A DNA stretch of 64,000 nucleotides from a virus. The position numbers and the translations under genes are program-made. The notes beneath the pieces were generated by a model. That model was not told the DNA's origin and made no database searches. It saw nothing but the letters and a program-made list of their open reading frames with translations. Of the stretch, positions 4,154 through 37,738 are shown in pieces; positions within the stretch are counted from its first letter, which is position 1; each line of letters begins with the position of its first letter. Location: the IMG/VR virus record IMGVR_UViG_3300029171_000001. One strand, written 5' to 3'.

Positions 4154-4184
4154 AAAAAACCCGCTCTTTTTAGGGAGCGGGTTT
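4154..4184 (-). terminator. intrinsic terminator of attenuator 1
   Basis: AAACCCGCTC-CCTAAAAA-GAGCGGGTTT followed by TTTGTTTT, between leader and first tRNA. Confidence 0.9.
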
Positions 4185-4214
4185 GTTAATTCCTTTTGTT
4201 TATATCACTTGTTT

Positions 4215-4346
4215 TTATCCAAGCTTTCTAAAAGTCAAAACATATCCGCTCCCATAGCTATAATCATAAGCTGGGGCATACCCTGCACCGCCCATCATCG
4301 GGGCAATTGCTGGAGTAGTTGCTGAATATGTAGTTACTGTTTTCAC
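4215..4346 (-). CDS. leader peptide MKTVTTYSATTPAIAPMMGGAGYAPAYDYSYGSGYVLTFRKLG (GTG start)
   Basis: Hand-translated 43 aa; Pro/Ala/Gly/Tyr/Asp-rich; contains GGGAGCGG complementary to the terminator arm. Confidence 0.8.
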   Translation of the reverse strand: MKTVTTYSATTPAIAPMMGGAGYAPAYDYSYGSGYVLTFRKLG

Positions 4347-4426
4347 CTGTTTTATTTTCTTTTAATTGTTAAAACCTATTTCTAGGTTCTTTTGATAAAT
4401 AGTAGAAAAAATTGTTTTTCGATAAT

Positions 4427-4455
4427 TTATACGTACAAAGATAGAATAAGTTTCA
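4427..4455 (-). promoter_or_regulatory. promoter TGAAAC-N16-CGTATAA with embedded TATCTTTG
   Basis: Near-identical ~48-bp block repeated at 31109-31156; TAnnTTTG is the Bacteroidetes -7 element. Confidence 0.75.
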
Positions 4456-4516
4456 ACAAGAAACAAGTTTTTTTTGAAAAAATCTTCTAAGTGATTAAAA
4501 ATCAATCCAATTAATT

Positions 4517-4720
4517 TTATTTAGACACATTTTTTGTTTGGATAAATTCGATCAATTTGTTTAATCTACACTCACACATAAAAGCATCATCATGAATGCA
4601 AACTTTTTCAAACTTCATTATAGACTCCTTTGGATATTCCTGACCATAAGAAGTGACACTATATAACATCTGCTTAATCACATCAAGATCCTCGTCTTTT
4701 AATACGTAAATGTTTGCCAT
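4517..4720 (-). CDS. hypothetical protein
   Basis: 67-aa ORF tiling with neighbours. Confidence 0.65.
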   Translation of the reverse strand: MANIYVLKDEDLDVIKQMLYSVTSYGQEYPKESIMKFEKVCIHDDAFMCECRLNKLIEFIQTKNVSK

Positions 4721-4723
4721 TTT

Positions 4724-5176
4724 TTACCAATTAAGTTTTTTAGCAGTGTTTTTAAATATCTCACATACTTGTTCGGAGATTTGAAATCTGTCCTTGTTTA
4801 AAGAGATAGATTTATAAATATCTCCATCTGCATGTCTCTCGGTTGCAGCCTTCCAATCCATCAACATTTCAATTAAATCGAAAATATCAAATCCATTTAT
4901 GCCATTTTCATAATGTTCTGGATGATGAGAATTGTTTGCATAATGATGATCTAAAGCTGGCTTAAGTTCTTTAAGCGATTCTTTATATTCAGGAGAACCA
5001 TAAGTAAGCCCTTTTAATTTTTCTGTAGCTTTATCAAACCACTCCTTTTCTGGATTTTCAAGTTTGGATTGATCATGTTTGTTTGCTCTATTTAAAAGTT
5101 CTATTGAAGCCTCGTTTAAAAGTTGAGCAACTCTTTTTATGTGTTTTAATGTATCAACTGTACTATCGTATGACAT
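4724..5176 (-). CDS. DUF5662-like protein (HD-like)
   Basis: HDQSKLE, HHYANNSHHPEHY, DLIEMLMDW motifs; start re-set to MSYDST. Confidence 0.7.
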   Translation of the reverse strand: MSYDSTVDTLKHIKRVAQLLNEASIELLNRANKHDQSKLENPEKEWFDKATEKLKGLTYGSPEYKESLKELKPALDHHYANNSHHPEHYENGINGFDIFDLIEMLMDWKAATERHADGDIYKSISLNKDRFQISEQVCEIFKNTAKKLNW

Positions 5177-5225
5177 ATTTTTTTGTTTATATAAAAATAT
5201 AAACAAAATATAACAAAAACAAATT

Positions 5226-5771
5226 TTAATTTTTTGTACTCAACATCAAATCCTTCACATTCTGCACACAAAATCCATGACCTTCTCTTCTGATCAATTC
5301 ATAAATCACCCCTGTAAGCTCTGACGGTTTTGTAAACACTTGCTCTAACCCTGGGCACTTCAACGGTTCTGGAGATAAAAATTCACCATACCCCTTATCT
5401 TCCCACTCTTTCATTGTTGCTGCAACATCATCAACCTGAAACGCCATATGGTGAATTCCGCCTACACCATCTCTTGCTTTTACCCAATCTCCGACGATTG
5501 AATTCTCTTCACCATCTGATATGAAAATTTCTGGAGCCACATGATAGACCTGGTTAATATCGCCAAATGGAAAGTTTATTGCCCAAGGCAAATTCTCGCT
5601 CACCTTTTCAGATGGCACAAGCACAAGACAATTGGCCTCTGTACCATCATCAAATTGTAATTTAAAGCCATCTGGAAGATCTTCAGCAATTTTATACCCA
5701 AGGCAATCAACAAAGAATTGGGCTGTTTTATGACGGTTTTTGACCCTGTAGGCCACGTGGTCTAATCTCAT
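5226..5771 (-). CDS. VOC/glyoxalase superfamily protein
   Basis: LDHVAYRV, GIHHMAFQVDDV, C-terminal YELI. Confidence 0.8.
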   Translation of the reverse strand: MRLDHVAYRVKNRHKTAQFFVDCLGYKIAEDLPDGFKLQFDDGTEANCLVLVPSEKVSENLPWAINFPFGDINQVYHVAPEIFISDGEENSIVGDWVKARDGVGGIHHMAFQVDDVAATMKEWEDKGYGEFLSPEPLKCPGLEQVFTKPSELTGVIYELIRREGHGFCVQNVKDLMLSTKN

Positions 5772-5849
5772 TTTTGTAAAGGTTTATTTTTAAATAGTAC
5801 AAAAAAAATCCCCGTGTTTTCACACGAGGAATTCTTTTTTATTGTTTTT

Positions 5850-6539
5850 TTAAAAAGACCTAAACAATTCAAACAACAAAAACTTACAACGTTTTAATTT
5901 TGGAGAAGAAATTTTAGATGTATTAACAAATTGTAAATTTGTGTCAACATCCCTTTGTAATTCTTCTTTATAACACAATAATTCTTCAAAAGTAAACCCA
6001 TCTGTCCAGCGAGTAAAAATTGAGGTTCGATTAGTTTTATAATTTTCTATTGCGGTTTTTATTTCTGGCAATTGGTACTGATTATGATACAAAATACAAA
6101 TCTCATTCAATAATTCTATAAGCGCATTATGGTGCACAACATGTTCTACTAATTTAACTTCATACTTTTTAATATCATTAACTATTTCTTTGCATCTAAT
6201 AATATGGTCTTGATCACGTATTTTATTAACTTGGGGAGGCTCTTTAACAAATAATTTTCCATTTTTTAAAATAACATATTTGTGTAATACAGCATTAACT
6301 ATACCTGTAGCTTTAATCAATTCAACAATACGACTATTAATGAAAAAACAAATTAATCCTATAATTCCAAGCGGCACTTTGAAGTCTGTTTCTGGATTCC
6401 AATTTTTCCAAAATAAACTAAGAAATATTGCAACTGCTAAACATGCTTTATGCCAAGTGAGATAATTATAATAGCGTAAACCCGCAAATCCAAACAACAT
6501 CAAACAAACAATCTCCCATTTATATTGTATGATTTCCAT
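5850..6539 (-). CDS. hypothetical membrane protein
   Basis: 229 aa, hydrophobic N-terminus. Confidence 0.7.
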   Translation of the reverse strand: MEIIQYKWEIVCLMLFGFAGLRYYNYLTWHKACLAVAIFLSLFWKNWNPETDFKVPLGIIGLICFFINSRIVELIKATGIVNAVLHKYVILKNGKLFVKEPPQVNKIRDQDHIIRCKEIVNDIKKYEVKLVEHVVHHNALIELLNEICILYHNQYQLPEIKTAIENYKTNRTSIFTRWTDGFTFEELLCYKEELQRDVDTNLQFVNTSKISSPKLKRCKFLLFELFRSF

Positions 6540-6540
6540 A

Positions 6541-8157
6541 TTATTTCATTTTTATTGCTGTGATATACATAAATTTCTCTCTAATATCAGTAACACCGAG
6601 AATATCAAAGCCAGCTTGGATTAATAAATTTTCTAGTTCTTTCTGTTTTTGTTCAATTAACTCTGCTTCCCCAACAGTTTCCGCTATATATATAATACCT
6701 TTTCGCTTTAAAACTCTATAAGCTTCCTTAAGATAATATTCTTTGTCTTTTTTTGTACCCCAAAGCGATAAAGAAAAAACAGCTATATCATGAGTTTTGT
6801 CTTTTATAAATTTAGATATATCACTCATATCACATTCAATAACTGACTCATCAAAAGCAACATGGTCAATAGAAGTAACTTTATTGTTTGGAATTTCTTT
6901 CTTCAGCTCATTGCCACCACAACCAAAGTCAATTATAACATCAGAAGAATCTGTGATTTTTTTGGCAATCTCTTCATACGGAGCTTCTTTCCAGTAATCC
7001 ATATTCTCTTTTCTGAGTTTATGATATTCAAAAAATTCATTTGGGTTATCTTTGAAAAATTTGCCCATCTTTTTAGCAGAAGTGGTTCGTCCCATCTTAT
7101 TTATTTTTTGGATTTTACTAAGAACAAAATTATTATTCACAACTTGTTCTTCGCAATTTAAATTTCTTGAAAAACTAACCATGCCCCCCTCTAAACCAAA
7201 TGTATTCCAAGGTTCACAAGGCAACTTTTTCTTCTCCTTTTTTTCAATTAACTTGTACTTTTTTATCCAATTATCAGCAGATAAAACACTGTGTTTTTTT
7301 GCCAACGAAATACATTCTTCTATTGAGGATACATCAAAACCATAAGAGGTACCAAGCAAACTTGAAAACGCTGTAATTCCACCATCTAAACCAAATGTAT
7401 TCCAAGGCTCACAAGGCAACTTTTTCTTCTCCACTTGTTGAATTATCTTGTAATTTTTTACCCAATTAAATCCTGTGAAAATTTTATTTTTTTTCGCTAT
7501 TTCAACACATTCTTCTATTGAGGATACATCAAAACTATAAGAGGTACCAAGCAATCTTGAAAATTCAACTTGTCCTCCTTTTAAGTCAAATGTTTTCCAC
7601 GGACTTGATGGCAATTTCTTTTTCTCCTTTTTGCCGATATCTTTGTGTTTTTTTGCCCAAGAAAAAGCGGTAGTAATATCATATTTACTTGCCAGTAAAA
7701 CACATTCTTCGATTGAAGATACATCGAAATCATAATTTTTATCAATCAATCTTGAAAATTCAACTTGTCCTCCTTTTAAGCCAAATGTTTTCCACGGACT
7801 TGATGGCAATTTCTTTTTCTCCTTTTTGCCGATATCTTTGTATTTTTTTGCCCACTCCACTGAAGATATAACACTATATTTTTTTGCCAATTTAACACAT
7901 TCTTCTATTGAGGATACATCAAAACTATAAGAGGTACCAAGCAATCTTGAAAATTCAACTTGTCCCCCTTCTAAGTCAAATGTTTTCCACGGATGAGATG
8001 GGAGTTTTTTTCTTTCATTTTTACCTATGACTTTACAATTCTTTATCCAAGCTTTTGCTGATATAATCTCATATTTCTTTGCCAATGCGACACATTCTTC
8101 GATTGATGTTGCATTAAAATCATAGGAACCATCGAGTAACATTGAAAATTTAGCCAT
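6541..8157 (-). CDS. 65-aa repeat array plus RRP8-like SAM methyltransferase (3' half of split gene)
   Basis: Five repeats, then IIDFGCG, IECDMS, DIAVFSLSLWG, EAYRVLK. Confidence 0.75.
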   Translation of the reverse strand: MAKFSMLLDGSYDFNATSIEECVALAKKYEIISAKAWIKNCKVIGKNERKKLPSHPWKTFDLEGGQVEFSRLLGTSYSFDVSSIEECVKLAKKYSVISSVEWAKKYKDIGKKEKKKLPSSPWKTFGLKGGQVEFSRLIDKNYDFDVSSIEECVLLASKYDITTAFSWAKKHKDIGKKEKKKLPSSPWKTFDLKGGQVEFSRLLGTSYSFDVSSIEECVEIAKKNKIFTGFNWVKNYKIIQQVEKKKLPCEPWNTFGLDGGITAFSSLLGTSYGFDVSSIEECISLAKKHSVLSADNWIKKYKLIEKKEKKKLPCEPWNTFGLEGGMVSFSRNLNCEEQVVNNNFVLSKIQKINKMGRTTSAKKMGKFFKDNPNEFFEYHKLRKENMDYWKEAPYEEIAKKITDSSDVIIDFGCGGNELKKEIPNNKVTSIDHVAFDESVIECDMSDISKFIKDKTHDIAVFSLSLWGTKKDKEYYLKEAYRVLKRKGIIYIAETVGEAELIEQKQKELENLLIQAGFDILGVTDIREKFMYITAIKMK

Positions 8158-8513
8158 TCCCCCTCTAAGTCAAATGTTTTCCAAGGATTAAATGGAAGTT
8201 TTTTTCTTTCTTTCTCACTGATAACTTTACAATTCTTTATCCAGGCTTTTGCTGATATAATCTCATATTTCTTCGCCAATGCAACACATTCTTCGATTGA
8301 TGTTACATCAAAATCACAAAATGTGCCAAGTCTTTTTGAAAATTCAATTTGTCCGCCTTCTAAGTCAAATGTGTTCCAGGGCTCACATGGCAATTTTTTT
8401 TCTTCTTTCCCACCAACGTTTTTATATTTTTTTATCCAATCAGCTGAAGATACAATACCGTATTTTTTTGATAATACAACACATTCTTCGATTGAAGATA
8501 CGTCATACACATC
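7150..8513 (-). repeat. seven tandem 195-bp coding repeats (integrase-repeat-like LPxxPW unit)
   Basis: DVSSIEECV...KKLPxxPWxTFxLxGG unit; span 1364 nt = 7x195-1. Confidence 0.9.
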
Positions 8514-20008: not shown

Positions 20009-20743
20009 TTAGTTAATGTAATTTTTAATGTTTTCTTTGTCCAACATGATTTGAGCCTTAACAACTTCAAGAGTAACATTGAAATTGTTTTCAGTCGCTT
20101 TAATGTTTTGCTCGGCGATTGCCGCAGATTGGTTTAACTCTCCAATACCAGTTTGAAGTTCATTAATCTGCGATTGAATTTTTGCAATTTGCTCTTGTTT
20201 GGAAACAATCTCAGCATTTTTGTTTTCAACCTCTTTGTGACGTTGAGTAACTTCATGCTCGATTTCTCTGCGCATCTCTTCTTCGAATTCAGATTTTTGA
20301 GAATCCAACTCTTTAATATAGAAGTCAGCAGTTTCAAGAAGGCGTTCTTTTGTGATCGAACTGTTTGCTTTTAATGATGCAAAAGCTGATTGATATTTGA
20401 GCGGATCGCTCATACCAGCGATATTGTCAAGACCTTTTTTCGCTTTAGAAAACTCAAGGTAGTCTACACCTTCCAGGTTTTTTTCTTCCATGTGTGCAAC
20501 AAACCCAGCGAAAAGCTTCTCGTCAAATTGCCCCTTGTTAAAAGATGGCATAATTTGATTTGTTGCCACATTTGAATACACAAACTTTGAGGCTTGCGGT
20601 TCGCCAACTGACGTTTGTGGCGCATTTTGTGAAGATGAACTAGACTCTTCAGTGTTTGTTTCTTCTTCTAATGCAATTGATTTTACTTTGTCCCAAAAAC
20701 CCTTTTTCTTTGTGGGTGTTGGTTCTGTTTTTTTCTCTGCCAT
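20009..20743 (-). CDS. coiled-coil protein of the membrane module
   Basis: 244 aa, acidic N-terminus, C-terminal coiled coil. Confidence 0.7.
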   Translation of the reverse strand: MAEKKTEPTPTKKKGFWDKVKSIALEEETNTEESSSSSQNAPQTSVGEPQASKFVYSNVATNQIMPSFNKGQFDEKLFAGFVAHMEEKNLEGVDYLEFSKAKKGLDNIAGMSDPLKYQSAFASLKANSSITKERLLETADFYIKELDSQKSEFEEEMRREIEHEVTQRHKEVENKNAEIVSKQEQIAKIQSQINELQTGIGELNQSAAIAEQNIKATENNFNVTLEVVKAQIMLDKENIKNYIN

Positions 20744-20840
20744 TGTTATTTGGTTTTAATATAAGTGTTAGTTATACGAGCAAAAATAAGAAAAGTTGCA
20801 GAATCCTGCAACTTTTTTTTAAAATAATAAAAAGACTTAT

Positions 20841-22682: not shown

Positions 22683-23021
22683 TTATTTTACCACGTAAAC
22701 ATATTTCCCATTATCAAGCTGGGTTAAATGTTGTGGGGCACGATACAAGTTTGGGCCAGAATGTGTTGTGGCCGATACATAAAATGTCAATATTTCGCCA
22801 TCTGTCTTTTGGACCTTGCACATCCAACCACCGTTGTTTGTTTTTTTAGCATCCTCAACAGCTTTTAATTCATAATTTTCACAATCCCTGGAAATGCACT
22901 CGTAAAACACATCCCCCTTTTTCAAGCTTTTCAATTCCAAGTAGTAATCACTAAAATTTTCTCCAAAATTAAACATCTCTGGAGAAAAAATTTTTGTTGT
23001 TTTCTTCATAATTCTCTTCAA
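22683..23021 (-). CDS. hypothetical protein
   Basis: 112-aa ORF. Confidence 0.7.
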   Translation of the reverse strand: MKRIMKKTTKIFSPEMFNFGENFSDYYLELKSLKKGDVFYECISRDCENYELKAVEDAKKTNNGGWMCKVQKTDGEILTFYVSATTHSGPNLYRAPQHLTQLDNGKYVYVVK

Positions 23022-23762: not shown

Positions 23763-24572
23763 TTATTGTTGTCTATAAATTGTTCTTTTTAAATCCCAAC
23801 CATGTGGTAAAAATTGAGGATTTACATGTTCTATAAAATGTGTTCTCCACATTTCTACAAAAGCCTGCAAATCCTTTACTTGTGACATTACAAGTTGAGC
23901 GTGTTCATATTCTGAATTGGTATCTTTCTTGTAATCCAAATTAGAAGCTTTAACCAAATCTTCACTTGTATAATTTTCGTTCCCAAAATACAAAAAAAGA
24001 TTATTGTTCAACACTTCTTTTTTTTCATCTGGAATTGAATTCCACATATTTAATTTCAAATAAGCCGCAGTCTTTGCGTTTTTAAATACAATCTTTTGCT
24101 TGGACATTTTATTATGTAATGGGGCATTGTATTGTTTAGCTATTGAATGCTTGAGCTCATCAGCTTTGGTTTCATAATTAGCGTGATGCTCATGACACAA
24201 AGGCATTATATCTATCGAACTGGACTGTTTTATTTCAATAGGCATAAATTTTCTATACGAATAAGGTACTATGTGATGCTTAGTTAGAACAGAAACATCT
24301 TTGTTACCACATTGGACACATATATTTTCTTTTTGAGATAAATAATACGGATCTCCATTCCACCCCTCTTTTTTTGGCTTAAATGTAAGTTGAATAACAG
24401 GTGGTTCTTCAGAAATAATCTTGGCTAGACTTCTTGTTAAATACCAATCCGCTTTTTTCTTTAAACACCTAAACATTTCGGCCCCAGTATCCGATAATAC
24501 CAAGTAATTGCCATAAATCTCATTCTTGCGTCTGGATTTATCGAAATTTTCAAATCTTTTATCGTGTCCCAT
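23763..24572 (-). CDS. HNH-like protein resembling the EXD2 C-terminal domain
   Basis: KKADWYL, SEEP..I.L.F.P, KENICVQCG, HHIVPYSYRK, LCHEHH. Confidence 0.65.
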   Translation of the reverse strand: MGHDKRFENFDKSRRKNEIYGNYLVLSDTGAEMFRCLKKKADWYLTRSLAKIISEEPPVIQLTFKPKKEGWNGDPYYLSQKENICVQCGNKDVSVLTKHHIVPYSYRKFMPIEIKQSSSIDIMPLCHEHHANYETKADELKHSIAKQYNAPLHNKMSKQKIVFKNAKTAAYLKLNMWNSIPDEKKEVLNNNLFLYFGNENYTSEDLVKASNLDYKKDTNSEYEHAQLVMSQVKDLQAFVEMWRTHFIEHVNPQFLPHGWDLKRTIYRQQ

Positions 24573-27550: not shown

Positions 27551-27811
27551 TTATTGATAATTTTTGCGATAAATGCAGACATATTTTACATCATTTTTTA
27601 AATGATCAAAAAAATACTTTTCACATTGTTTAAATGTACCAATTTTCACTAATTCATCAGAAAACATCTCATAATATAAACCATATTTCCCATCTTCTCT
27701 TAAACGAATATAGGCATATCCAGAACCATTACTGTCCTTATTTTTTTTAAAACAATAACTAACCTCATTTAAGATTATACTTTCTTCAATTACAATATCT
27801 TTCTTTTTCAT
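27551..27811 (-). CDS. hypothetical protein
   Basis: 86-aa ORF abutting trpS. Confidence 0.65.
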   Translation of the reverse strand: MKKKDIVIEESIILNEVSYCFKKNKDSNGSGYAYIRLREDGKYGLYYEMFSDELVKIGTFKQCEKYFFDHLKNDVKYVCIYRKNYQ

Positions 27812-28551
27812 TAATTTTTATTACCAAACAACTCCACCATTCTACGAGCAATTGCCTCTTTAAGTTGCAAATTTAATGAAAATTCTTGAATATCCAAACC
27901 CAACTCCCTGGCAATCATCTGTATATTTTTCAAACCTTCTTCATTCATGTTTGCTTTTTTTATCTTTCCCATATAATCTTCATCAAAAAGATATAACACA
28001 TGTTTTTCACCATCTGATTTTGACATTTTCTTCGTAGGGTCAATCAACGACATTACCTTATCCACATGTCCAAACTCATATGTATAATCATCTCTACCAC
28101 CAACACGCTTACAAATATCGTTTGCAAGCTCTATATGAGCAACCTGGTCCCTGCCAACAATAATTATGTCTGGATCATTCATCATAATATCAGCTGCCAT
28201 TAAAACTGGGTATAAAAGCAAACCCATGTCGTACTCAACCTTGTCTTTTTTATCTTTATACTGAGGCATCTTTAACAGTGTAGCAATATTTACCTTGCAG
28301 CAAAGTTTGAAAAAAAGTTCTGTATACAAAGGTGTTTGGTGCACAATTTTTTTGCACCCCAAACGAATAAGCTCTTGTTCGGTTTTATCTGAATAACTAT
28401 CGGTTGTCAAAGAATGATAATTGGCAATCAAAAAAGTAACATCATGACCTTGTTCTTGTAACTCAAGACCTTTTTTAAGACAACCTAGATAGTTACCTAT
28501 GTGAAGTTTGTTAGTCGGTTGAATGCCGATTAATATTTTTTTTGTTTTCAT
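27811..28551 (-). CDS. trpS: tryptophanyl-tRNA synthetase, compact (246 aa)
   Basis: GIQPT..LHIGNY, YPVLMAADI, VG.DQ..H.EL, KKMSKS; start re-set to MKTKK because the ORF-track extension lies in a tRNA. Confidence 0.93.
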   Translation of the reverse strand: MKTKKILIGIQPTNKLHIGNYLGCLKKGLELQEQGHDVTFLIANYHSLTTDSYSDKTEQELIRLGCKKIVHQTPLYTELFFKLCCKVNIATLLKMPQYKDKKDKVEYDMGLLLYPVLMAADIMMNDPDIIIVGRDQVAHIELANDICKRVGGRDDYTYEFGHVDKVMSLIDPTKKMSKSDGEKHVLYLFDEDYMGKIKKANMNEEGLKNIQMIARELGLDIQEFSLNLQLKEAIARRMVELFGNKN

Positions 28552-28553
28552 CG

Positions 28554-28638
28554 CACGTCGAAGAGGATTCGAACCCCTGTGAGACCTAAGTCTGCTGGTT
28601 TTGGAGACCAGTGCTATCAACCACTCTGCCATCGACGT
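28554..28638 (-). tRNA. tRNA-Trp(CCA) with long variable arm
   Basis: CTGGT-CTCCAAA-ACCAG, A1:U72, G73, AGAC-TTAG-GTCT arm; ends 2 nt before the trpS ATG. Confidence 0.88.
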
Positions 28639-28716
28639 ATATAGATGTTTAAAATTACGGATTAGAATTTTTAAAGCCTCGGTCTTGTCGCCGCTTCCTT
28701 AATCTATCACATCTTG

Positions 28717-28789
28717 CACGAGAGACAGGAATCGAACCTGCAACCTTCGGTTTTGGAGACCGCCACTCTACCAGTTGAGCTACTCTCGT
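28717..28789 (-). tRNA. tRNA-Trp(CCA)
   Basis: Canonical, loop CTCCAAA, A1:U72, G73. Confidence 0.93.
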
Positions 28790-28792
28790 GTA

Positions 28793-29386
28793 TTATTTGT
28801 TTTTGCTTTTTAAATATCTTGTTTTTCTACTTGAGTTTTTGTTTTTAGACTTATATGTATCAAGTTGAGAATCACAATTAGGACAAACCAGCCTCAAATT
28901 TATTCTAAAATTATTGTAAGCGTTACCATCTATATGATCGAGAATAAAAACCAATCTAATGTTATTCCACTCGTTTTTTATACCACACACAGCGCATTTA
29001 CAATTCTGTTCTAATAAAATGTGCTTTTTAATAAAGCTCATATTCCTATCATGACAATACTCGTGTTGGTTATTTAAATATTTGGCATATATTTCTTTAG
29101 ATTGATTTTCATAATAACAATCACGACTGCAAAAAGTTTGATCTGGGTGGGTGGTTAACTTTATATTTTTATCACACTCCTTACACTTAATTATTTTAGC
29201 TGTTCCTTTATTAGCTGGAACAAAATTATCTTTAAAATTCGCTCTTTTAGGAAGAATTATACCTAATTTTTTAGCCGCTTTTTTTATAGTTTCATCAGTA
29301 ACTCCATACATTTTACCTATCTTTATATAAGATAGTTTTTTATCAAAAATTAATGTTGACAACTCTTCTTTGTTATAATTTTTCAT
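28793..29386 (-). CDS. HNH endonuclease inside tRNA array 2
   Basis: CAVCG...LDHIDGNAYNN...NLRLVCPNC. Confidence 0.9.
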   Translation of the reverse strand: MKNYNKEELSTLIFDKKLSYIKIGKMYGVTDETIKKAAKKLGIILPKRANFKDNFVPANKGTAKIIKCKECDKNIKLTTHPDQTFCSRDCYYENQSKEIYAKYLNNQHEYCHDRNMSFIKKHILLEQNCKCAVCGIKNEWNNIRLVFILDHIDGNAYNNFRINLRLVCPNCDSQLDTYKSKNKNSSRKTRYLKSKNK

Positions 29387-29483
29387 ATTCTTTTATTTAA
29401 ATATAAAGAAAAATAACTCCAATTACTAATCAATTTAAAAAATAATCTATTAGTAATTTAAATAACTATTTCAAAGAACTTTG

Positions 29484-29560
29484 TGATCGCCACGGGAGTC
29501 GAACCCGTATGTGTCCAATTACTCTTTCAACTGCTTAGAAGGCAGAGGAGTTATGCGACC
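29484..29560 (-). tRNA. rearranged tRNA-Arg(TCT)-like RNA
   Basis: GGTCGCA TA ACTC CT CTGC-CTTCTAA-GCAG TTGAAA GAGT AATTGGACACAT, then T-arm and acceptor. Confidence 0.7.
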
Positions 29561-29567
29561 TTTTTTG

Positions 29568-29644
29568 TGACCACCACGGGATTCGAACCCATATGCATCC
29601 ACTTACTCTTTCAACGGTTTAGGAAACCGAGGAGATATGCGGCC
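29568..29644 (-). tRNA. rearranged tRNA-Arg(CCT)-like RNA
   Basis: Same layout with CGGT-TTCCTAA-ACCG. Confidence 0.7.
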
Positions 29645-29647
29645 ATT

Positions 29648-29725
29648 TGTGATTGATAATTGTGGAATCGAACCACTGAGTTTTTACACTCCGACACCTT
29701 GAGCTCAAGTCAATTTACCAATCAC
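29648..29725 (-). ncRNA. degenerate tRNA-like RNA
   Basis: GTGATTG/CAATCAC ends, GTGG-TTCGATT-CCAC arm, no anticodon arm. Confidence 0.4.
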
Positions 29726-29729
29726 TTTG

Positions 29730-29801
29730 TAGTCCCACTAGGAATCGAACCTAGATAATTGGTTTAGAAAACCAAGGCTTTATCCATTAAGCTATGGGAC
29801 C
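29730..29801 (-). tRNA. tRNA-Arg(TCT)
   Basis: TTGGT-TTTCTAA-ACCAA, canonical cloverleaf. Confidence 0.92.
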
Positions 29802-29879
29802 AAATTCTAATTAGTTAAAGTGGTTTTATGATGCCAATTAGTAATGCATCCTCATAACGGATTACCACAATCCTATTCG

Positions 29880-29961
29880 TGTTGAGGGGAGGATTCGAAC
29901 CACCAGATGATCAGTACGTACTTAATCACCTTTTCCAAACGCATGCTTATTTGACCTCAAC
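29880..29961 (-). ncRNA. tRNA-like RNA (acceptor and T-arm)
   Basis: GTTGAGG/CCTCAAC+A, T-loop TTCGAAT; middle lacks an anticodon arm. Confidence 0.5.
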
Positions 29962-29965
29962 ATTG

Positions 29966-30056
29966 CAGAAGTGACGAGATTCGAACTCGTGCGCCGATTT
30001 TCACCGACCTATCAACTTTCCAGGCTGACCCCTTTCATCCACTTGGGTACACTTCT
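29966..30056 (-). tRNA. tRNA-Ser(GGA)
   Basis: TCAGC-CTGGAAA-GTTGA, long variable arm, G73. Confidence 0.93.
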
Positions 30057-30064
30057 ATATTTTG

Positions 30065-30153
30065 CGGAGGCGGTGAGGATCGAACTCACGCAGCGGATTT
30101 CTCCGCCCTAACGGTTTAGCAAACCGTCCCCTTCACCACTTGGGTACGCCTCC
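30065..30153 (-). tRNA. tRNA-Ser(GCT)
   Basis: ACGGT-TTGCTAA-ACCGT, long variable arm, G73. Confidence 0.95.
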
Positions 30154-30158
30154 AATTG

Positions 30159-30247
30159 AGGAGAGCATAGGATTCGAACCTAATGCGGGTCTTCCCCGCA
30201 CCCTTTGTTTAGCAAACAAGGACTAGCCCAAGCCAGCATTACTCTCC
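30159..30247 (-). tRNA. tRNA-Ser(GCT)
   Basis: Loop TTGCTAA, TGCGGG/CCCGCA arm, U73. Confidence 0.85.
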
Positions 30248-30327
30248 AATTTTATCTCCGCATTTTTGCGGAGATTACGATGTTTATTCACCGCACAAAA
30301 ATAAAAAACAATACGTCAAAAAACTTT

Positions 30328-30413
30328 TGGCGGAAGATATAGGAATCGAACCCTGCCCTTGCGGACCGCCCCATGCTTCAAACATGGTTGACCACCGATG
30401 GTCGCTACCTTCC
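30328..30413 (-). tRNA. tRNA-Ser(TGA), CCA encoded
   Basis: CCATG-TTTGAAG-CATGG, variable arm, GCCA end. Confidence 0.88.
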
Positions 30414-30418
30414 AGTTG

Positions 30419-30503
30419 AGGAGAGTGTGAGATTCGAACTCACGGACCCCGAAGGGCCTCCAGTTTTCAAGACTGGTGCAATAGACCACTCTGCCAACTC
30501 TCC
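30419..30503 (-). tRNA. tRNA-Ser(TGA)
   Basis: CCAGT-CTTGAAA-ACTGG, variable arm, U73. Confidence 0.93.
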
Positions 30504-30508
30504 TTATT

Positions 30509-30889
30509 TTAATTCAATTTTGCCCAAGGCTCATAACTCAAAACAAAAGCTGTTCCCCAACCATTAGAACCTTGTCCGCCCAACTCACCCTTCTCACGCA
30601 TATCTGCAAAAATTTCTTTCATACATTTTTTTACATTGAAATTATCGCAAAGTATTTGAAAATCATTGTGGCCAAATTTAAACCCATCAAACTCAATCAC
30701 AATTTCTTTTGGTTTTTCTTTTTCATCTTCAATCAAAAGATAAGTTGTTCCCTGCAAATCGTACATCTTAGAAAAAAGCTTTAAACCATTTTCTTTCATG
30801 ATAGTGATTTGTTCATCAGTGTATTCAGTTACACCTTTGCACCATTCAATCTTGTTGATCATTCCTTGTATTAATTCTTCTTTGTTCAT
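30509..30889 (-). CDS. hypothetical protein, first gene of the array-2 operon
   Basis: 126-aa ORF between terminator and tRNAs. Confidence 0.75.
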   Translation of the reverse strand: MNKEELIQGMINKIEWCKGVTEYTDEQITIMKENGLKLFSKMYDLQGTTYLLIEDEKEKPKEIVIEFDGFKFGHNDFQILCDNFNVKKCMKEIFADMREKGELGGQGSNGWGTAFVLSYEPWAKLN

Positions 30890-30910: not shown

Positions 30911-30942
30911 AAAAAACCCTGGCTTTTTGTGAGCCAGGGTTT
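30911..30942 (-). terminator. intrinsic terminator of attenuator 2
   Basis: AAACCCTGGCT-CACAAAA-AGCCAGGGTTT followed by TTTATTT. Confidence 0.9.
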
Positions 30943-30980: not shown

Positions 30981-31070
30981 TTATGACAATAAATGGCCTG
31001 GCTCGGTTGCTCTACTTGAGCTCGAACTCCTTCTCCAAGACCATGATCTATTGTTTGTAACTGTTTTCAT
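30981..31070 (-). CDS. leader peptide MKTVTNNRSWSWRRSSSSSRATEPGHLLS
   Basis: Hand-translated 29 aa; codons 8-20 only Arg/Ser/Trp; GAGCCAGG complementary to the terminator arm. Confidence 0.88.
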   Translation of the reverse strand: MKTVTNNRSWSWRRSSSSSRATEPGHLLS

Positions 31071-31108
31071 TTGTTATAAATATGCTAAAAATTCTTTTTT
31101 CTGAAATT

Positions 31109-31137
31109 TTATACGTACAAAGATAGAATAAGTTTCA
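31109..31137 (-). promoter_or_regulatory. promoter TGAAAC-N16-CGTATAA with TATCTTTG
   Basis: Same block as 4427-4455. Confidence 0.75.
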
Positions 31138-31204
31138 ACAAGAAACAAGTTTTTTTACAAAATTTTTTGTTTGTTGCTGATTTTTAGGTAGATAAAATTT
31201 TTAA

Positions 31205-32503
31205 TTACTCTGCCACATTTCCTAAATTTACTGTACCACTCGCTATTTCTTCGTCGATTTTTTTAATAATAAATTCAGATACCTTAGAAATTACTTCCAG
31301 GTTTTTTTGGATTTGCTCTTTATTCGCTTTCCATAATGCCAAATATGTTGCATGATGAGATACTGGTAAATCATAATGTTTTAAAACCACATATGAAACA
31401 CTCTCAGCTTGCAATTCCATAATAGCACTATTTCTTCTCACATCATCCCCTTGATAATAAATAGAAGAAGACCTGTGGTGCATTAATTCATGTGCTATCT
31501 CATGAATCATTGTCGATAATCTTCCAGCCCCAGACACTCCAGTAGAAATATTTATGTGATCTCCAGCACTATACCCTTTCTCTCCTCTTTTTGCGTCGTT
31601 TTGAGTAACATTTATATGCATATCTTTTGCAACTTCTACAACAGCTGCATATAATTTATCAGCTGTTTCTGAAGGAGTGTTTTCACCCCACCATTTTGGT
31701 TCTTCTGGAATTTCACCCCTTTCATCTATCGGCTTGGTATCAGAAATATCAAAAACATTTACCGCCTTAAATCCTCTAATTTCTTTTTCATTACCAAGAG
31801 TACTTCCATCAACTGAACTATCAACATCTTCCACGCCCTTTTGTTTGCTAATTAAAGGAGCAAGTATTGTAATACCCTTAGCACCTTTTTGAACTTGTCT
31901 GAACTTAGACTTCCAAGTATTAAAAGATGCAACACGTGTCGCATCTGGTTTTTGAATATAAATTAAAATTTTATTGAAGAAACTGTAATTATGGAACTTA
32001 GAAAAGAACGTTAAATACCTTCTTATCTCAGCAGAAAGAGCGGCTTCATCAGTTGCGTTTGCTAAATCGCTTATATATTGATCTAGTTTTGTTTTTAACA
32101 AGCTTTTATTATCTGCATCAGCAGCCATTACAGCCCCTTCAACATCTTCGAGTGAATTAATAATGTACTCCACCTTGTTTGCTGTTGAGAGTGTTTTTTT
32201 AGCCATTTCAAATTTGTCTACTGGGATGGCCCAATGATTTCCAGTCCAAATAAATCCATTTTGTTTTAAAAGCGCCTTGTTTTTAAAGGTCTCTTGATTT
32301 GCTGCTTTTCCATCAAGATCAGATACCACGATTAGCCTATTTTGTTCTTTGTCGTGTTGCAATTTTAGCGCTTCACGCATTATACCCTCATTAAGCTCTT
32401 GTGTTATGTGTTGCTTTTCTTCTTTTAAAAGTTCTATTTTGTAAAGCCTTTTGGCCTCAGAAATGATATACTTCTTTAGATCTGAAATGGTGATTTTTGC
32501 CAT
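31205..32503 (-). CDS. ArdC-like ssDNA-binding domain plus HExxH metallopeptidase domain
   Basis: FHNYSFFN.ILI..Q.P.AT.VA.F..W, HEIAHE, ELQAESVSY. Confidence 0.8.
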   Translation of the reverse strand: MAKITISDLKKYIISEAKRLYKIELLKEEKQHITQELNEGIMREALKLQHDKEQNRLIVVSDLDGKAANQETFKNKALLKQNGFIWTGNHWAIPVDKFEMAKKTLSTANKVEYIINSLEDVEGAVMAADADNKSLLKTKLDQYISDLANATDEAALSAEIRRYLTFFSKFHNYSFFNKILIYIQKPDATRVASFNTWKSKFRQVQKGAKGITILAPLISKQKGVEDVDSSVDGSTLGNEKEIRGFKAVNVFDISDTKPIDERGEIPEEPKWWGENTPSETADKLYAAVVEVAKDMHINVTQNDAKRGEKGYSAGDHINISTGVSGAGRLSTMIHEIAHELMHHRSSSIYYQGDDVRRNSAIMELQAESVSYVVLKHYDLPVSHHATYLALWKANKEQIQKNLEVISKVSEFIIKKIDEEIASGTVNLGNVAE

Positions 32504-32542
32504 ATGAAATTAACTTTCATATAAATATGACGTTTTTTTGGT

Positions 32543-33661: not shown

Positions 33662-33812
33662 AATATTTAAGTTTTATAATACTAAATATAATAAATCCAA
33701 GATAAAAAACAAAACCCCCAATTATAAAACTGAGGGTTTTTTTAAAGACGTGGGTAGGTCTATGTAAATAGCGTCTTTTTAAGGTTATACGAAAATTTTC
33801 AACAAAGGTTGC

Positions 33813-34463: not shown

Positions 34464-34908
34464 ACACAGACTTTTTTTGTTTAAACAATACTTTTGCTTC
34501 TTTGTACTTCAACCTTGCAGCTTCCGTCTCAGATCTAAGAGTTTTATATTTCTCTCTCAGTGCTACAATTTGTTGCTCAAGGATAGATGGTTTAATTGAT
34601 ATTTTTAAATCCTCTCCGATGAACCTTCTTTTTACAAACGAAATCAAAGATCTCATCGTTCTAATATTTTGTTTCTTTTCAAAGTAATAGATTTTCCTCG
34701 CCAGTTTTTTTCGTGAAGAAAGAGTTGATGGGTTGAGATTAAGTTTTTCAAATACCTCATCTAAATTACCATCCACAACATACTCACGTTCTTTGCAAAT
34801 TAATTTAATTTTTTCGATTGCTGATTTTAAATTCTGAGACACAGCTTGCTCAGTAAAAGTTTCCTTAATTTGTTTTAAAGAATTTATTGATTGATTTTTA
34901 GTTTCCAT
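34453..34908 (-). CDS. hypothetical protein
   Basis: 151-aa ORF. Confidence 0.7.
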   Translation of the reverse strand: METKNQSINSLKQIKETFTEQAVSQNLKSAIEKIKLICKEREYVVDGNLDEVFEKLNLNPSTLSSRKKLARKIYYFEKKQNIRTMRSLISFVKRRFIGEDLKISIKPSILEQQIVALREKYKTLRSETEAARLKYKEAKVLFKQKKSVYDN

Positions 34909-35028
34909 AATGTTTAATTTATTTTTGTTTGATTAATAATTTAATTTGTCACTGATTTTTCAGTCTAACATTACGGCGGATTTTCATTTATCTATTTCAT
35001 GACACTTTTGTTTTTAAATTAATTATTG

Positions 35029-35048
35029 AGCGCTTGCGTGGTTTCGAA
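35029..35048 (-). pseudogene. isolated tRNA 3' fragment
   Basis: TTCGAAA-CCACG-CAAGCGC-T(CA) with no 5' half. Confidence 0.45.
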
Positions 35049-35075
35049 AATTTATTTCTATTTATATTAAACTTT

Positions 35076-35735
35076 ATGAAACCATTATATACATTTATTG
35101 AATTTGAAAAAGCTAAAACTTGTGATATGTTACCTTGTGAGTGTTTACAATGTCATGGTGTTTTTAAAAAACAAAAAAGAGCAATAGTAAAAGCACTAAA
35201 AGGTGTTGACAGGCATTGTGGTAATTTTTGTAGTCCAATTTGCGGAAGAATTCACCAAGGTGGATTAAGTCAATCTGTGGTCTGCAAAAATTGCCAGACG
35301 GAATTTCTTAAAAAACCTTCTGAAATACTTAGAAATAAAAATCATTTTTGTTCTAAATCTTGTGCTGCCACTTATAATAACACACATAAAACTCACGGTA
35401 CCAGACGATCTAAACTTGAACAATATCTAGAAGAACAATTAACACTTCTTTATCCAGATCTATTAATCAACTTTAACAAAAAAGATGTAATTAATTCTGA
35501 ACTTGATATTTATATTCCATCACTCAAACTTGCTTTTGAATTAAATGGTATTTATCACTATAAACCAATTCATGGCGATAACAAATTAGAAAAAATAAGA
35601 ATTAATGATACTTTAAAAAAAGAAGCATGTAAAAAACTCAACATTGAACTAAATGTAATAAATACATCAACTAAAGAGCATGAGACAATTTTTTTAAAAA
35701 TAATTGCCGACATTATAAACTATAATTTAGTTTAA
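35076..35735 (+). CDS. Zn-finger plus PD-(D/E)xK-type putative homing endonuclease
   Basis: CxxC/FCSxxC motifs, ELDIYIPSLKLAFELNGIYHY; antisense to the tRNA array; TATTTATA at 35059. Confidence 0.75.
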   Translation: MKPLYTFIEFEKAKTCDMLPCECLQCHGVFKKQKRAIVKALKGVDRHCGNFCSPICGRIHQGGLSQSVVCKNCQTEFLKKPSEILRNKNHFCSKSCAATYNNTHKTHGTRRSKLEQYLEEQLTLLYPDLLINFNKKDVINSELDIYIPSLKLAFELNGIYHYKPIHGDNKLEKIRINDTLKKEACKKLNIELNVINTSTKEHETIFLKIIADIINYNLV

Positions 35736-35761
35736 CTTTTCAAAAATTCAAAGAACAAATG

Positions 35762-35833
35762 AGCGCCCTGACACAATCGAAGTGCCGCATGCAGACATTG
35801 CGTGTCTGTGCCTTTCCCCTTGGCTAAGGGCGC
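35762..35833 (-). tRNA. tRNA-Cys(GCA)-like with A32/C33/U38
   Basis: GCGCCCT/AGGGCGC, U73, CAGAC-ACGCAAT-GTCTG. Confidence 0.7.
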
Positions 35834-35839
35834 TTTTAG

Positions 35840-35887
35840 TGGGAGTGTAGTCATCGAAGACCTTGACCATATTTCAGTCACACTCCC
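35840..35887 (-). ncRNA. mini-tRNA 1 (48 nt)
   Basis: GGGAGTG TGAC-loop-GTCA A GGTC-TTCGAT-GACT A CACTCCC A. Confidence 0.7.
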
Positions 35888-35936
35888 TGGTGGTTAGGAA
35901 AGGATATTATCCTCATACATCACCAAAGACCCAACC
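35888..35936 (-). ncRNA. minihelix-like RNA with CCA
   Basis: GGTTGGG/CCTAACC ACCA with AGGAT/ATCCT hairpin. Confidence 0.5.
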
Positions 35937-35982
35937 TGGTGGAGAGCAGATCACTTAAGACCCTAACTTTACAGCACTCTCC
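35937..35982 (-). ncRNA. mini-tRNA 2 (46 nt, CCA)
   Basis: GGAGAGT GCT-GTAA-AGT TAG GGTC-TTAAGT-GATC T GCTCTCC ACCA. Confidence 0.75.
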
Positions 35983-35986
35983 TTTG

Positions 35987-36112
35987 TGGCTCTTAAAGGA
36001 TTCGAACCTCTGACAAAACAAAAAATGATATCGTTTTTGTTGTGCTAGTCTACCATATTTTCATTTAGTTACTCGTTGCAACATTTCACTAAAATCCAAT
36101 TGACCAAAAGCC
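35987..36112 (-). ncRNA. 126-nt tRNA-like RNA with D-loop insert and extended central stem
   Basis: GGCTTTT/AAGAGCC+A, AGAGG-TTCGAAT-CCTTT, D-stem GTC/GAC. Confidence 0.55.
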
Positions 36113-36117
36113 ATTTG

Positions 36118-36261
36118 TGGACGTAGAAGGAATCGAACCTCCAATCTTCAGCGTTCCGTGTTAACTTGCAGAACTTCGATCATCCCTCACCTTTCATTAT
36201 TGTCTCGCTTTTATTTGCAAATTATTATGCGATATTTTCATTTCCAGTGCGATATACGCCC
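36118..36261 (-). ncRNA. 144-nt tRNA-Ala-like RNA with large inserts
   Basis: GGGCGTA/TACGTCC+A (G3:U70), D-stem TCGC/GCGA, GGAGG-TTCGATT-CCTTC. Confidence 0.55.
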
Positions 36262-36282
36262 ATATTTTAAAGAACATTTTTG

Positions 36283-36354
36283 AGATCCATGTCGGGTTCG
36301 AACCGACGACCTTGGCTTTTAGAGGGCCTTGCTCTGCCGCTGAGCTAATGGATC
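36283..36354 (-). tRNA. amber suppressor tRNA (CTA anticodon)
   Basis: GATCCAT/ATGGATC, U73, GCTC/GAGC D-stem, loop CTCTAAA, 3-bp anticodon stem plus mismatches. Confidence 0.8.
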
Positions 36355-36360
36355 ATTTTG

Positions 36361-36435
36361 AGCAGGAGGATGGAATCGAACCACCGTCCTCTGATATTGC
36401 GTATCAGCGCTTGCAGCCAACTCAGCTACTCCTGC
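36361..36435 (-). tRNA. second tRNA-Cys(GCA)-like with A32/C33/U38
   Basis: GCAGGAG/CTCCTGC, U73, CTGAT-ACGCAAT-ATCAG. Confidence 0.7.
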
Positions 36436-36440
36436 TTTTG

Positions 36441-36511
36441 TGGGGGAAGATGTTAACGAAACATCGACCTTCTCTCTTGCGAAAAACGCTCTTCAACTGA
36501 GCTATTCCCCC
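36441..36511 (-). ncRNA. tRNA-like RNA with CGCAA anticodon region
   Basis: GGGGGAA/TTCCCCC+A, GCTC/GAGC, TTTTC-GCAA-GAGAG, T-loop TTCGTTA. Confidence 0.6.
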
Positions 36512-36557
36512 TGGTGGAGAGCAGATCACTTAAGACCCTAACTTTTCAGCACTCTCC
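36512..36557 (-). ncRNA. mini-tRNA 3 (46 nt, CCA), copy of mini-tRNA 2
   Basis: Differs from 35937-35982 only in the loop (GAAA vs GTAA). Confidence 0.75.
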
Positions 36558-36562
36558 TTGTG

Positions 36563-36606
36563 TGGGGAAGCAGTCATCTAAGACCTTGTTCTTTCGAACC
36601 TTCCCC
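36563..36606 (-). ncRNA. mini-tRNA 4 (44 nt)
   Basis: GGGGAAG GTTC-GAAA-GAAC AA GGTC-TTAGAT-GACT G CTTCCCC A. Confidence 0.75.
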
Positions 36607-36756
36607 AAGTCCTCTTGTTCCCACTTAAGGGACAATGTTTGAGTTTTTGTTTCTTAGCCAAGTCGCAATCCAAGGCCTGTCTTTTTTGGGTCTGCAGAAC
36701 CCAGACTGTTTCCACTCGCTCACTGATTTTTCAATCTGCGCATCAATTGAAAAACT

Positions 36757-36999
36757 TCAAGAGGTTTTTATTTTATAGATGAAGTGATTTGTGTTTGGCA
36801 TATAACCTTTACCACTTCTATCAAAGAACATTTTGTTTTGCTTATTATCTTCTACTACAATTGCTTCATCAGTTAAATCTATTACCACCCACCAATGTTT
36901 CCACTCTACAGTTGGATTTATTTCATCAGTTGCGCAAGATATTGCAAGTAGTTGACTTTTTACTTTATCACCAATTTTAATATTTGTCAAATTAATCAT
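36757..36999 (-). CDS. hypothetical protein
   Basis: 80-aa ORF. Confidence 0.65.
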   Translation of the reverse strand: MINLTNIKIGDKVKSQLLAISCATDEINPTVEWKHWWVVIDLTDEAIVVEDNKQNKMFFDRSGKGYMPNTNHFIYKIKTS

Positions 37000-37262
37000 T
37001 AGTAAATTTGTGCTATTGTTTCATTGTTGTTTTCGTAAATCTCAATTCTTCCCTTGAATTGAATACTGCCCTTTGTTGTTGGATTTTCTGGAGTTTCTTT
37101 TGTTGAGAATCCAATTTGAGAATCAACATGATTAACATAATAGGTTTGACCCTTGTGCTTGATTGTCCACATCGGAATAGAAGGATCCGATAAATGTCCC
37201 TTGTTAAAGTGGAACACAATTCTACTAACTTCTTCAGATTGCATTATGATTTTATTTTCCAT
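36999..37262 (-). CDS. hypothetical protein
   Basis: Start re-set to MENKII. Confidence 0.7.
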   Translation of the reverse strand: MENKIIMQSEEVSRIVFHFNKGHLSDPSIPMWTIKHKGQTYYVNHVDSQIGFSTKETPENPTTKGSIQFKGRIEIYENNNETIAQIY

Positions 37263-37644
37263 CTGCAACCTCCTTTCCATGAAAATTTTGAAAAGCTGAA
37301 GTATACTCTCTAAACGCCAACGGCAAGTTTGAGGTAAGCCTTTTCGCCTCTTCAGATGGCTCCAACGCAATAGCTGTTAAAGCATCGTTAAAGTCTGGCT
37401 CGGTAAACGCAGAACATAAAATGCCCCTTGTTTTAGCTTTAAATAATAATTCTTGTAATGATTTTTCGTTCTCGCAAGAAAGAAGAACGATATGATTGGA
37501 TTTGAAATACCAATCGTTTTGAACAACTTCGTGTTCTTTTTGAAATTGCTTGCCAGCATGGACAAGCTGAGCACCTTGAGCTCCTGGGTGGAGGTCTCTC
37601 CTGGTGATGAGGATCAATTTTGATTTGTCGTTAATCTACAACAT
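37252..37644 (-). CDS. Pth2-like peptidyl-tRNA hydrolase with in-frame TAG at codon 3
   Basis: LITRRDL..GAQGAQ..HA, IVLL, FTEPD, TAIALEP, LT.NLPL; ATG TTG TAG ATT AAC in frame upstream of the TTG at 37617. Confidence 0.75.
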
Positions 37645-37708
37645 AACTTTTCTTTTTTTATTTTTTACTCAGAGTTTATAAATATGAGTAAATTTTGTTT
37701 TTAGTATC

Positions 37709-37738
37709 TTATACGCACAAAGGTAATACAAAGTTTCA
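37709..37738 (-). promoter_or_regulatory. promoter TGAAAC-N17-CGTATAA with TACCTTTG
   Basis: Same architecture as the array-1 and array-2 promoters, followed by TATTTATA at 37677-37684. Confidence 0.7.

Follow-up and report, generated by a model that had tools for sequence, protein, structure and literature searches.

We analysed a 64,000-nucleotide (nt) stretch of the IMG/VR virus record IMGVR_UViG_3300029171_000001, referred to below as the window, with a focus on its transfer RNA (tRNA) genes and the elements that stand ahead of them. The window has a GC content of about 33% and carries nearly all of its genes on the minus strand, including all 21 tRNA genes, which form three arrays (A, B and C), each downstream of one site of a shared promoter cassette. 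In A and B, a short open reading frame (ORF), here called the leader, and an intrinsic terminator lie between cassette and tRNA genes (Table 1). Matches of the window proteins in PHROG and Pfam include a DNA helicase, a clamp-loader-like ATPase, a MazG-like pyrophosphatase and an ArdC-like protein, among others. Given that a 154-kb IMG/VR contig with a CheckV completeness of 59% (G001) is syntenic with the window at 72-97% identity, the source is an uncultured jumbo phage of roughly 250 kb. Metagenomes from freshwater, wetlands and wastewater contain near-identical DNA. When cultured and deposited phages were searched for DNA at near identity, the sole match was one of 500 bp, in the tryptophanyl-tRNA synthetase (TrpRS)-like gene of LR756502.1, a published 642-kb phage, and a search with the helicase protein found no close cultured relative. 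Judged from promoter type only, the host is presumably a member of the Bacteroidota.

Table 1. Positions of the features discussed in the text (window coordinates unless another phage is named; aa, amino acids)
Feature	Position	Strand	Description
Promoter cassette A	4426..4474	-	-33 TTG, spacer TGAAAC, -7 TATCTTTG, CGTATAA around the presumed start site
Promoter cassette B	31108..31156	-	
Promoter cassette C	37709..37750	-	TTTG-N-TAnnTTTG with TGAAAC and CGTATAA
Fourth promoter, same class	20772..20812	-	TGCAAC...TTTGCTCGTATAA; ordinary gene (ATG at 20743), without leader or terminator
TATTTAT motif	4401-4395; 31082-31076; 37684-37678	-	After all three cassettes; the first lies between promoter and leader A
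Leader ORF A	4346..4215	-	GTG start, 43 codons plus stop; 80 nt after the promoter
Leader ORF B	31070..30981	-	29 codons plus stop; 38 nt after the promoter
Region 2 of putative attenuator A	4238..4254	-	Contains GGGAGCGG; predicted to pair with terminator 5' arm CCGCTCCC as anti-terminator
Region 1 of putative attenuator B	31023..31043	-	Inside the sensor codons; pairs with region 2 in the full-length minimum-energy fold
Region 2 of putative attenuator B	30994..31005	-	Contains GAGCCAGG; predicted to pair with terminator 5' arm CCTGGCTC
Intrinsic terminator A	4151..4184	-	10-bp GC-rich stem and T6 run
Intrinsic terminator B	30914..30942	-	11-bp stem, then T6 run
tRNA array A	197..4066	-	Pro x3, Asp, Tyr, Ala x3, Gly x3 and extra Asp- and Gly-like tRNAs; reaches the window edge
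Putatively gated unit B	28553..30889	-	126-aa ORF with no assigned function (30889..30509), then tRNA Ser x3, Arg(tct), Trp x2
TrpRS-like gene	27811..28632	-	Short (273 aa as ORF); directly behind the tRNA-Trp pair
ATG-TTG-TAG	37644..37636	-	In frame with the PTH2-like ORF
PTH2-like peptidyl-tRNA hydrolase ORF	37252..37644	-	Pfam PF01981
tRNA array C	35761..36435	-	Cys, amber suppressor (anticodon CUA), Cys
Amber-suppressor tRNA (CUA)	36282-36354	-	About 1.3 kb downstream of ATG-TTG-TAG
LR756502.1 array			Leader Lys/His/Phe/Ser/Arg and one Trp codon; genes Phe, His, Lys, TrpRS-like gene, Arg, Ser
LR756502.1 array (leader 2)			Leader Ile(ATA)/Glu/Gly/Tyr/Ala; genes Glu, Tyr, Ile(tat), Gly, Ala
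LR756502.1 array			Leader Asn/Leu/Thr/Val/Ile; same tRNA set
LR756502.1 array			Leader Gln/Asp/Pro; genes Pro, Asp, Gln
phiCbK short ORF and terminator sites (locus L190)	48022-48166; 49540-49769; 51341-51502		

An earlier note on this DNA had described the pattern TGAAAC-N16/17-CGTATAA with an embedded TAnnTTTG ahead of all three arrays, each time followed by TATTTAT, and both observations stand. The pattern occurs at exactly three sites in the window, all on the minus strand (4427-4455, 31109-31137 and 37709-37738), compared with none in 100 shuffles. The form common to all three arrays, without mismatch, is TGAAAC-N10/11-TTTG-NN-CGTATAA. Cassettes A and B, which had been called near-identical over about 48 bp, are identical over 49 nt (4474-4426 and 31156-31108). 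The consensus of Bacteroidota primary-sigma promoters is TTTG at -33 and TAnnTTTG at -7. By sequence, all three cassettes look like promoters of this sigma-A type, with TAnnTTTG lying about 20 nt (19-21 nt) after a TTG or TTTG, and the same spacing is found in LR756502.1; the cassettes differ from the consensus in having a TGAAAC(TT) spacer motif and a CGTATAA where transcription presumably starts. These extra conserved elements suggest a phage-specific (extended) promoter subclass or an added recognition factor. A GAAAC(TT) motif between -33 and -7 recurs in the distant LR756502.1 (L188, about 22850-22890; L191, about 22870-22910), and TATTTA(T/A) lies about 30 nt downstream of the start region. 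The proposal that did not survive is that this single cassette marks a tRNA-supply regulon. Near 20780, another promoter of this class stands ahead of an ordinary gene, which it drives, and several non-tRNA genes lie behind such promoters in relatives of the phage; we therefore reject the cassette as array-specific, treat it as a general phage promoter class and define the module by its leader and terminator.

Each of leaders A and B opens with the first start codon that follows its promoter, in A-rich surroundings, and the terminator hairpins lie 22-38 nt past their stop codons. In leader B, codons 8-20 (RSWSWRRSSSSSR) specify Ser, Arg or Trp at 13 of 13 positions, and all 13 can be read by the tRNAs of the array, namely Ser(tga, gct, gga), Arg(tct) and Trp(cca). 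Leader A contains a run of 21 residues made up only of Pro, Ala, Gly, Tyr, Asp, Met and Ser (21/21). Against the window proteome, the best-segment binomial p is about 4e-13 for B and about 9e-11 for A, before correction for segment choice. The amino acids themselves are partitioned among the three arrays without overlap, as had been proposed. Both A and B have three features expected of an attenuator: a short ORF before the regulated genes, enrichment of matching codons, and an intrinsic terminator in between. The earlier claims of a short, presumably translated element after every cassette, and of a sensor matching every array, hold for A and B but not for C, which has ATG-TTG-TAG only, a UAG element without a terminator. 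We consider ribosome-mediated (leader-peptide) transcription attenuation the likely mode of control of arrays A and B, and the phage probably makes each tRNA set only when its codons are decoded slowly.

The earlier note had also predicted that further arrays elsewhere would have leaders of their own, and we examined this beyond the window, in relatives recovered by a promoter-motif scan of viral contigs. At one locus (L006), a G001 leader was available on a piece too short to include its array, and tRNAs for Thr, Asn, Lys, Ile and His were predicted beforehand. The array behind it in G001 consists of Asn x2, His, Thr x2, Lys x3, Ile x3, Met, Leu(taa) and Cys x3, which is all of the predicted classes plus Met, Leu(taa) and Cys, and these three are also in the leader. 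Its first 24 residues comprise only those eight amino acids, the Leu codons being TTA or TTG. In the other classes, a Leu/Arg/Phe/Val leader block precedes Phe, Val, Leu and Arg(acg) arrays, and runs of 6-7 Gln codons precede 4-5 tRNA-Gln genes in the relatives G002 and G004. The sensor blocks of these three classes (D, E and F) match their arrays at 23/23, 14/17 and 6/6 to 7/7 positions, and the binomial p across all classes of window and relatives runs from 1e-5 to 1e-13. Further A-type and D-type leaders occur in L004, L075, L179 and G004. A wide-gap pattern (TTTG-NN-CGTATAA...TATTTA) returned 120 loci, mostly by chance, with real cassettes at L075 and L179 only. Every array that is readable in the relatives has a leader ahead of it, the suppressor cassette excepted. 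The expectation that these leaders would be of the MKTVT type proved too narrow, as other classes start with MLMNNL, MKNYSN or MKLTVN.

The correspondence extends to individual codons. Leader B uses only AGR for Arg and its array has tRNA-Arg(tct), class E uses only CGY and has tRNA-Arg(acg), and class D uses TTA/TTG for Leu and has tRNA-Leu(taa). The codon-level matrix of leaders against arrays is dominated by its diagonal, and within this phage family the observed pairing ranks first of 120 permutations. The start of leader A is kept as a start codon (GTG in the window and G001, ATG in L004 and L075), while between relatives the residue order of the leaders is scrambled and their composition retained, a pattern that selection on codon sensing, not on the peptide, would produce.

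LR756502.1 offers a more distant comparison, with its DNA-level similarity to the window limited to the TrpRS-like gene and its tRNAs grouped differently. All four arrays examined there have a matching leader and terminator (Table 1), and the true leader-array pairing is first of 24 permutations. Leader content therefore tracks array content through evolutionary reshuffling; as we read the sequences, shared ancestry of one cassette cannot explain the match across regroupings. In phiCbK, a cultured Caulobacter phage (JX100813.1), three tRNA blocks likewise come after a short ORF plus an annotated terminator, and the match in composition is looser: gp083, for example, has a high content of Ser, Leu, Pro and Lys and stands ahead of tRNAs for Pro, Lys, Leu and Ser.

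An attenuator of this kind also needs mutually exclusive RNA structures, and the trp logic of regions 1 to 4 can be traced in the predicted folds of both leaders. Pairing of region 1 with region 2 is seen in the minimum-energy folds of A and B, each folded as a single sequence; in the full-length fold of A, region 2 is held by leader nt 70-78 (4277..4269, Ala-Pro codons) together with a basal helix. When the terminator 3' arm is withheld from folding, region 2 is predicted to pair with the terminator 5' arm to give an anti-terminator. Such an in-ORF segment pairs with the 5' arm better than shuffled ORFs do in 13 of 16 leaders (p <= 0.05; the terminator hairpin of the G004 class E leader was picked by hand), and it always lies 10-30 nt before the leader stop. 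In homologous leaders the terminator and its partner change together: class A has two versions (GGGAGCGG/CCGCTCCC versus GGAACGAG/CTCGTTTC) and class D has three different terminator/partner pairs.

These features suggest the following sequence of events. A host-type Bacteroidota promoter would start the transcript, and the short ORF on it would be translated. During fast decoding the ribosome would cross region 2, or region 1 would pair with region 2; the terminator would form, and transcription would stop before the tRNA genes. During slow decoding, when matching charged tRNAs are scarce, the ribosome would stall on region 1. Region 2, freed by the stall, would take the terminator 5' arm, and RNA polymerase would read into the array and, in unit B, also into the TrpRS-like gene. 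As the leader codons would gate their own array, each array would regulate, in a closed feedback loop, the decoding capacity that it supplies. What the sequences show is the anatomy, the match of codons to anticodons and the alternative pairings, together with the way these are conserved and co-vary from phage to phage; translation of the ORFs, stall-driven read-through and the cause of tRNA depletion are what we infer from them.

Several observations weigh against control by attenuation. Only about half of the codons of each leader match its array, the mismatches lying in the MKTVT stretch at the N-terminus, in the Thr codons of leader A and in the C-terminal stretch. A 381-nt ORF separates terminator B from the first tRNA. 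Region 2 of A ends 23 nt before the stop codon, where a terminating ribosome would not fully cover it, and the Gln-class anti-terminator is weak (p = 0.03 and 0.43). Coupling of transcription and translation in the presumably Bacteroidota host is assumed. Stalling reports charged tRNA, so that amino-acid starvation would also trigger read-through, a situation in which extra tRNA would be of no help. Contigs from RNA libraries (two metatranscriptomic and two "RNA-Seq" wastewater runs) represent a relative at about 93% identity and span leader, terminator and first tRNA; they also cross the promoter, may be DNA, and reveal no starts, ends or attenuation.

Could the short ORFs and terminators simply be unrelated neighbours, with terminators that insulate or set a fixed low level of tRNA transcription and ORFs that are untranslated or chance frames? 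The fact that the same promoter class also drives ordinary genes would suit such an arrangement, as would the indirect case for translation and regulated read-through. It would, however, have to accommodate composition runs with p of 1e-5 to 1e-13, an array prediction that came true prospectively, leaders that follow the regrouped arrays of the distant LR756502.1, and a conserved start codon together with an in-ORF anti-terminator that co-varies with the terminator; we find it highly improbable. Hardly any more credible is the idea that the leader peptides are functional small proteins, such as inhibitors or precursors, co-expressed with the arrays instead of acting as sensors in cis. Some attenuator peptides do act in trans, peTrpL being an example (PMC7298713). 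In the phage leaders, however, residue order is scrambled and composition kept, the signature of codon sensing and not of a folded or recognised peptide, and the conserved 5' and 3' parts coincide with RNA helices.

A different question is what pressure shaped the attenuators. They may have evolved as a counter-defence sensor, in which host anticodon nucleases (the earlier note names PrrC, RloC and PARIS/AriB, among others) or other tRNA-depleting immunity would cut particular isoacceptors and the matching array would replace them, although we regard this as the less likely origin. Matching of leader to array at the level of isoacceptors suits the sensing of tRNA loss better than that of amino-acid supply, many of the window tRNAs have unusual architectures, and PMC10264068 proposes that phage tRNAs evade tRNA-targeting defences. 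On the other hand, nothing in the sequence identifies the cause of depletion. All amino-acid classes would be gated, including ones not known as nuclease targets, and an identical circuit would be favoured by the codon mismatch of a 33% GC phage or by the decay of host tRNAs that follows shut-off.

Cassette C shares the promoter but, by its sequence, is not an attenuator because it has no terminator: none (hairpin or T-run) was seen after the mini-ORF, and a pattern scan gave none up to the tRNAs. The order is promoter, ATG-TTG-TAG/PTH2, a pair of small ORFs, about 320 nt of non-coding sequence, and the Cys/CUA-suppressor/Cys tRNAs. Within this stretch (36441-36760, minus strand), which separates the last cassette C ORF from tRNA-Cys, we noted a tRNA-like sequence at about 36441-36510 that neither ARAGORN nor Rfam calls. 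The CUA tRNA is 92% identical to its counterpart in a close relative, the next nearest being Val and Met tRNAs at 72-74%, and its amino-acid identity is not assignable. In the 80%-identical G001 the mini-ORF reads ATG-AAG-TAG, with another second codon, and has lost the TTG start that lies downstream in the window; TAG read-through or a non-canonical start would therefore be needed there. Genome-wide recoding of TAG is rejected, TAG being the rarest stop, with no other in-frame TAG in long ORFs of the window, G001 (154 kb) or G002 (189 kb).

If TAG read-through occurs, it would gate PTH2 translation as a feed-forward, not a demand-driven, arrangement. It is conceivable, if somewhat against the odds, that cassette C is amber-gated in this way, translation of PTH2 then requiring the CUA tRNA to decode the codon-3 TAG, or that it is a two-codon minigene like lambda bar, with peptidyl-tRNA drop-off linked to the hydrolase encoded next to it. 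ATG-NNN-TAG is kept in frame with PTH2 in the 80%-identical relative despite the changed second codon and the lost TTG alternative; the mini-ORF has an A-rich upstream context, the suppressor tRNA lies downstream, and the Pfam PTH2 domain aligns from residue 1 of the TTG-start ORF. Set against this, no terminator or alternative structure ties ATG-TTG-TAG to tRNA transcription, the long ORFs of the window and of 340 kb of relatives have no other in-frame TAG, an ATT just past the TAG could serve as start, and the conservation of ATG-NNN-TAG involves two sequences only.

The remaining observations concern the tRNA genes and their neighbours. Two ARAGORN calls in array A are doubtful, Ser(aga) (3436-3521) and Gly(acc) (374-459), each with a poor anticodon stem. 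Three Rfam tRNA hits missed by ARAGORN (3226-3301, 467-540 and 774-836, minus strand) have anticodon loops for Asp(GUC), Gly(UCC) and, in a partial hit, Gly(UCC), and fit this array; its counterpart in a close relative continues with Tyr and Met x2. Many tRNAs are paired, a normal gene of 72-77 nt occurring with a version of 84-96 nt that has a long class-II-like variable arm. These long-armed tRNAs serve amino acids whose tRNAs normally lack the arm, among them Pro, Ala, Trp, Gly, Lys and Thr, and lie at 3854-3949, 1833-1919, 28553-28638 and 374-459 (minus strand) in the window, with others in G001, G002 and G004. On the reverse strand of G004, sequences resembling tRNA 3' halves (T-arm, GGTTCGAATCC-like) occur ahead of the first full tRNA, past a promoter or terminator: one at about 24170-24230, after the Gln-cassette promoter (a stretch shared with L010), and one at about 900-960, ahead of the Asn/His array. 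They may represent remnants or signals for processing. The TrpRS-like gene, whose best NCBIfam hit is trpS below cut-off (123 versus 177 bits), lies directly behind a long-armed tRNA-Trp and is probably part of the putatively gated unit B, and LR756502.1 has a similar gene within a tRNA array. Directly upstream of cassette B, an ORF of 432 aa (31205-32503, minus strand) combines an ArdC N-terminal domain with a weak M78 peptidase match (anti-restriction type).

Why phages carry tRNA genes has been debated for decades, with codon compensation, host shut-off and escape from tRNA-targeting defences among the answers. If attenuation operates as we propose, the phage gauges decoding capacity separately for each class and provides tRNAs as they are needed, which would make the purpose of phage tRNAs directly testable; phiCbK, with its looser version of the layout, is a culturable system for such a test. 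Leader-peptide attenuation would also be extended to tRNA genes and to Bacteroidota-type hosts, in which control of this kind is poorly known. The leaders predict the content of arrays not yet seen and could be used to annotate tRNA operons in metagenomic phages, and they could serve as compact codon-programmable switches. It is tempting to speculate further, in a picture that is doubtful as a whole, that the entire tRNA repertoire is split into about six gated closed-loop modules, which read decoding speed at the level of isoacceptors through multivalent leader peptides and act as sensor and repair against host tRNA-depleting immunity. In the same picture, the amber-gated PTH2/suppressor unit would be a second kind of module, and the system would be widespread, taking in phages as different as the Bacteroidota-type jumbo and 642-kb ones and those of Caulobacter that resemble phiCbK.

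On this reading, the phages put a known mechanism, ribosome-mediated attenuation, to a new use in the control of tRNA genes. Our full-text literature searches returned no description of leader-peptide control of tRNA genes, only of amino-acid, synthetase, resistance and similar genes. T-box riboswitches have the same goal, sensing the state of a specific tRNA and reading through a terminator to raise the expression of translation-related genes. What sets a T-box apart from the phage leaders is that it works without a ribosome, binding the uncharged tRNA itself by means of a specifier codon; a T-box or other known RNA family was rejected for the window, as an Rfam scan of its whole length at the gathering threshold returned tRNA as the only family. 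Lambda bar minigenes resemble the start of cassette C in being an AUG-sense-stop mini-ORF beside a gene linked to peptidyl-tRNA hydrolysis, whereas the mini-ORF of cassette C shares the reading frame of the hydrolase and has as its last codon the one read by the operon's own suppressor tRNA.

Closer parallels are found among leader-peptide attenuators. In E. coli, the pheST attenuator (pheM leader) controls phenylalanyl-tRNA synthetase, a translation component, and has a direct counterpart in the TrpRS-like gene that follows the Trp codons of leader B; pheST, however, involves a synthetase only, a single amino acid and no gated tRNA genes. The amino-acid operons of enterobacteria are preceded by trpL, hisL, leuL and pheL and by the multivalent leaders thrL and that of ilvGMEDA. 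The phage leaders share with them a promoter-proximal short ORF with regulatory codons followed by an intrinsic terminator, and, in the predicted folds, a region 2 in or near the ORF that could pair with either region 1 (the sensor codons) or the terminator 5' arm; like the ilv and thr leaders, they would sense several amino acids at once. They do not head a classical trp- or his-type operon, the downstream genes being tRNAs, small ORFs with no assigned function and one TrpRS-like gene in place of biosynthetic enzymes. The phage loop would thus differ in acting on the decoder itself, with isoacceptor-codon specificity, in a phage setting, behind a Bacteroidota-type promoter and with up to eight amino acids per leader.

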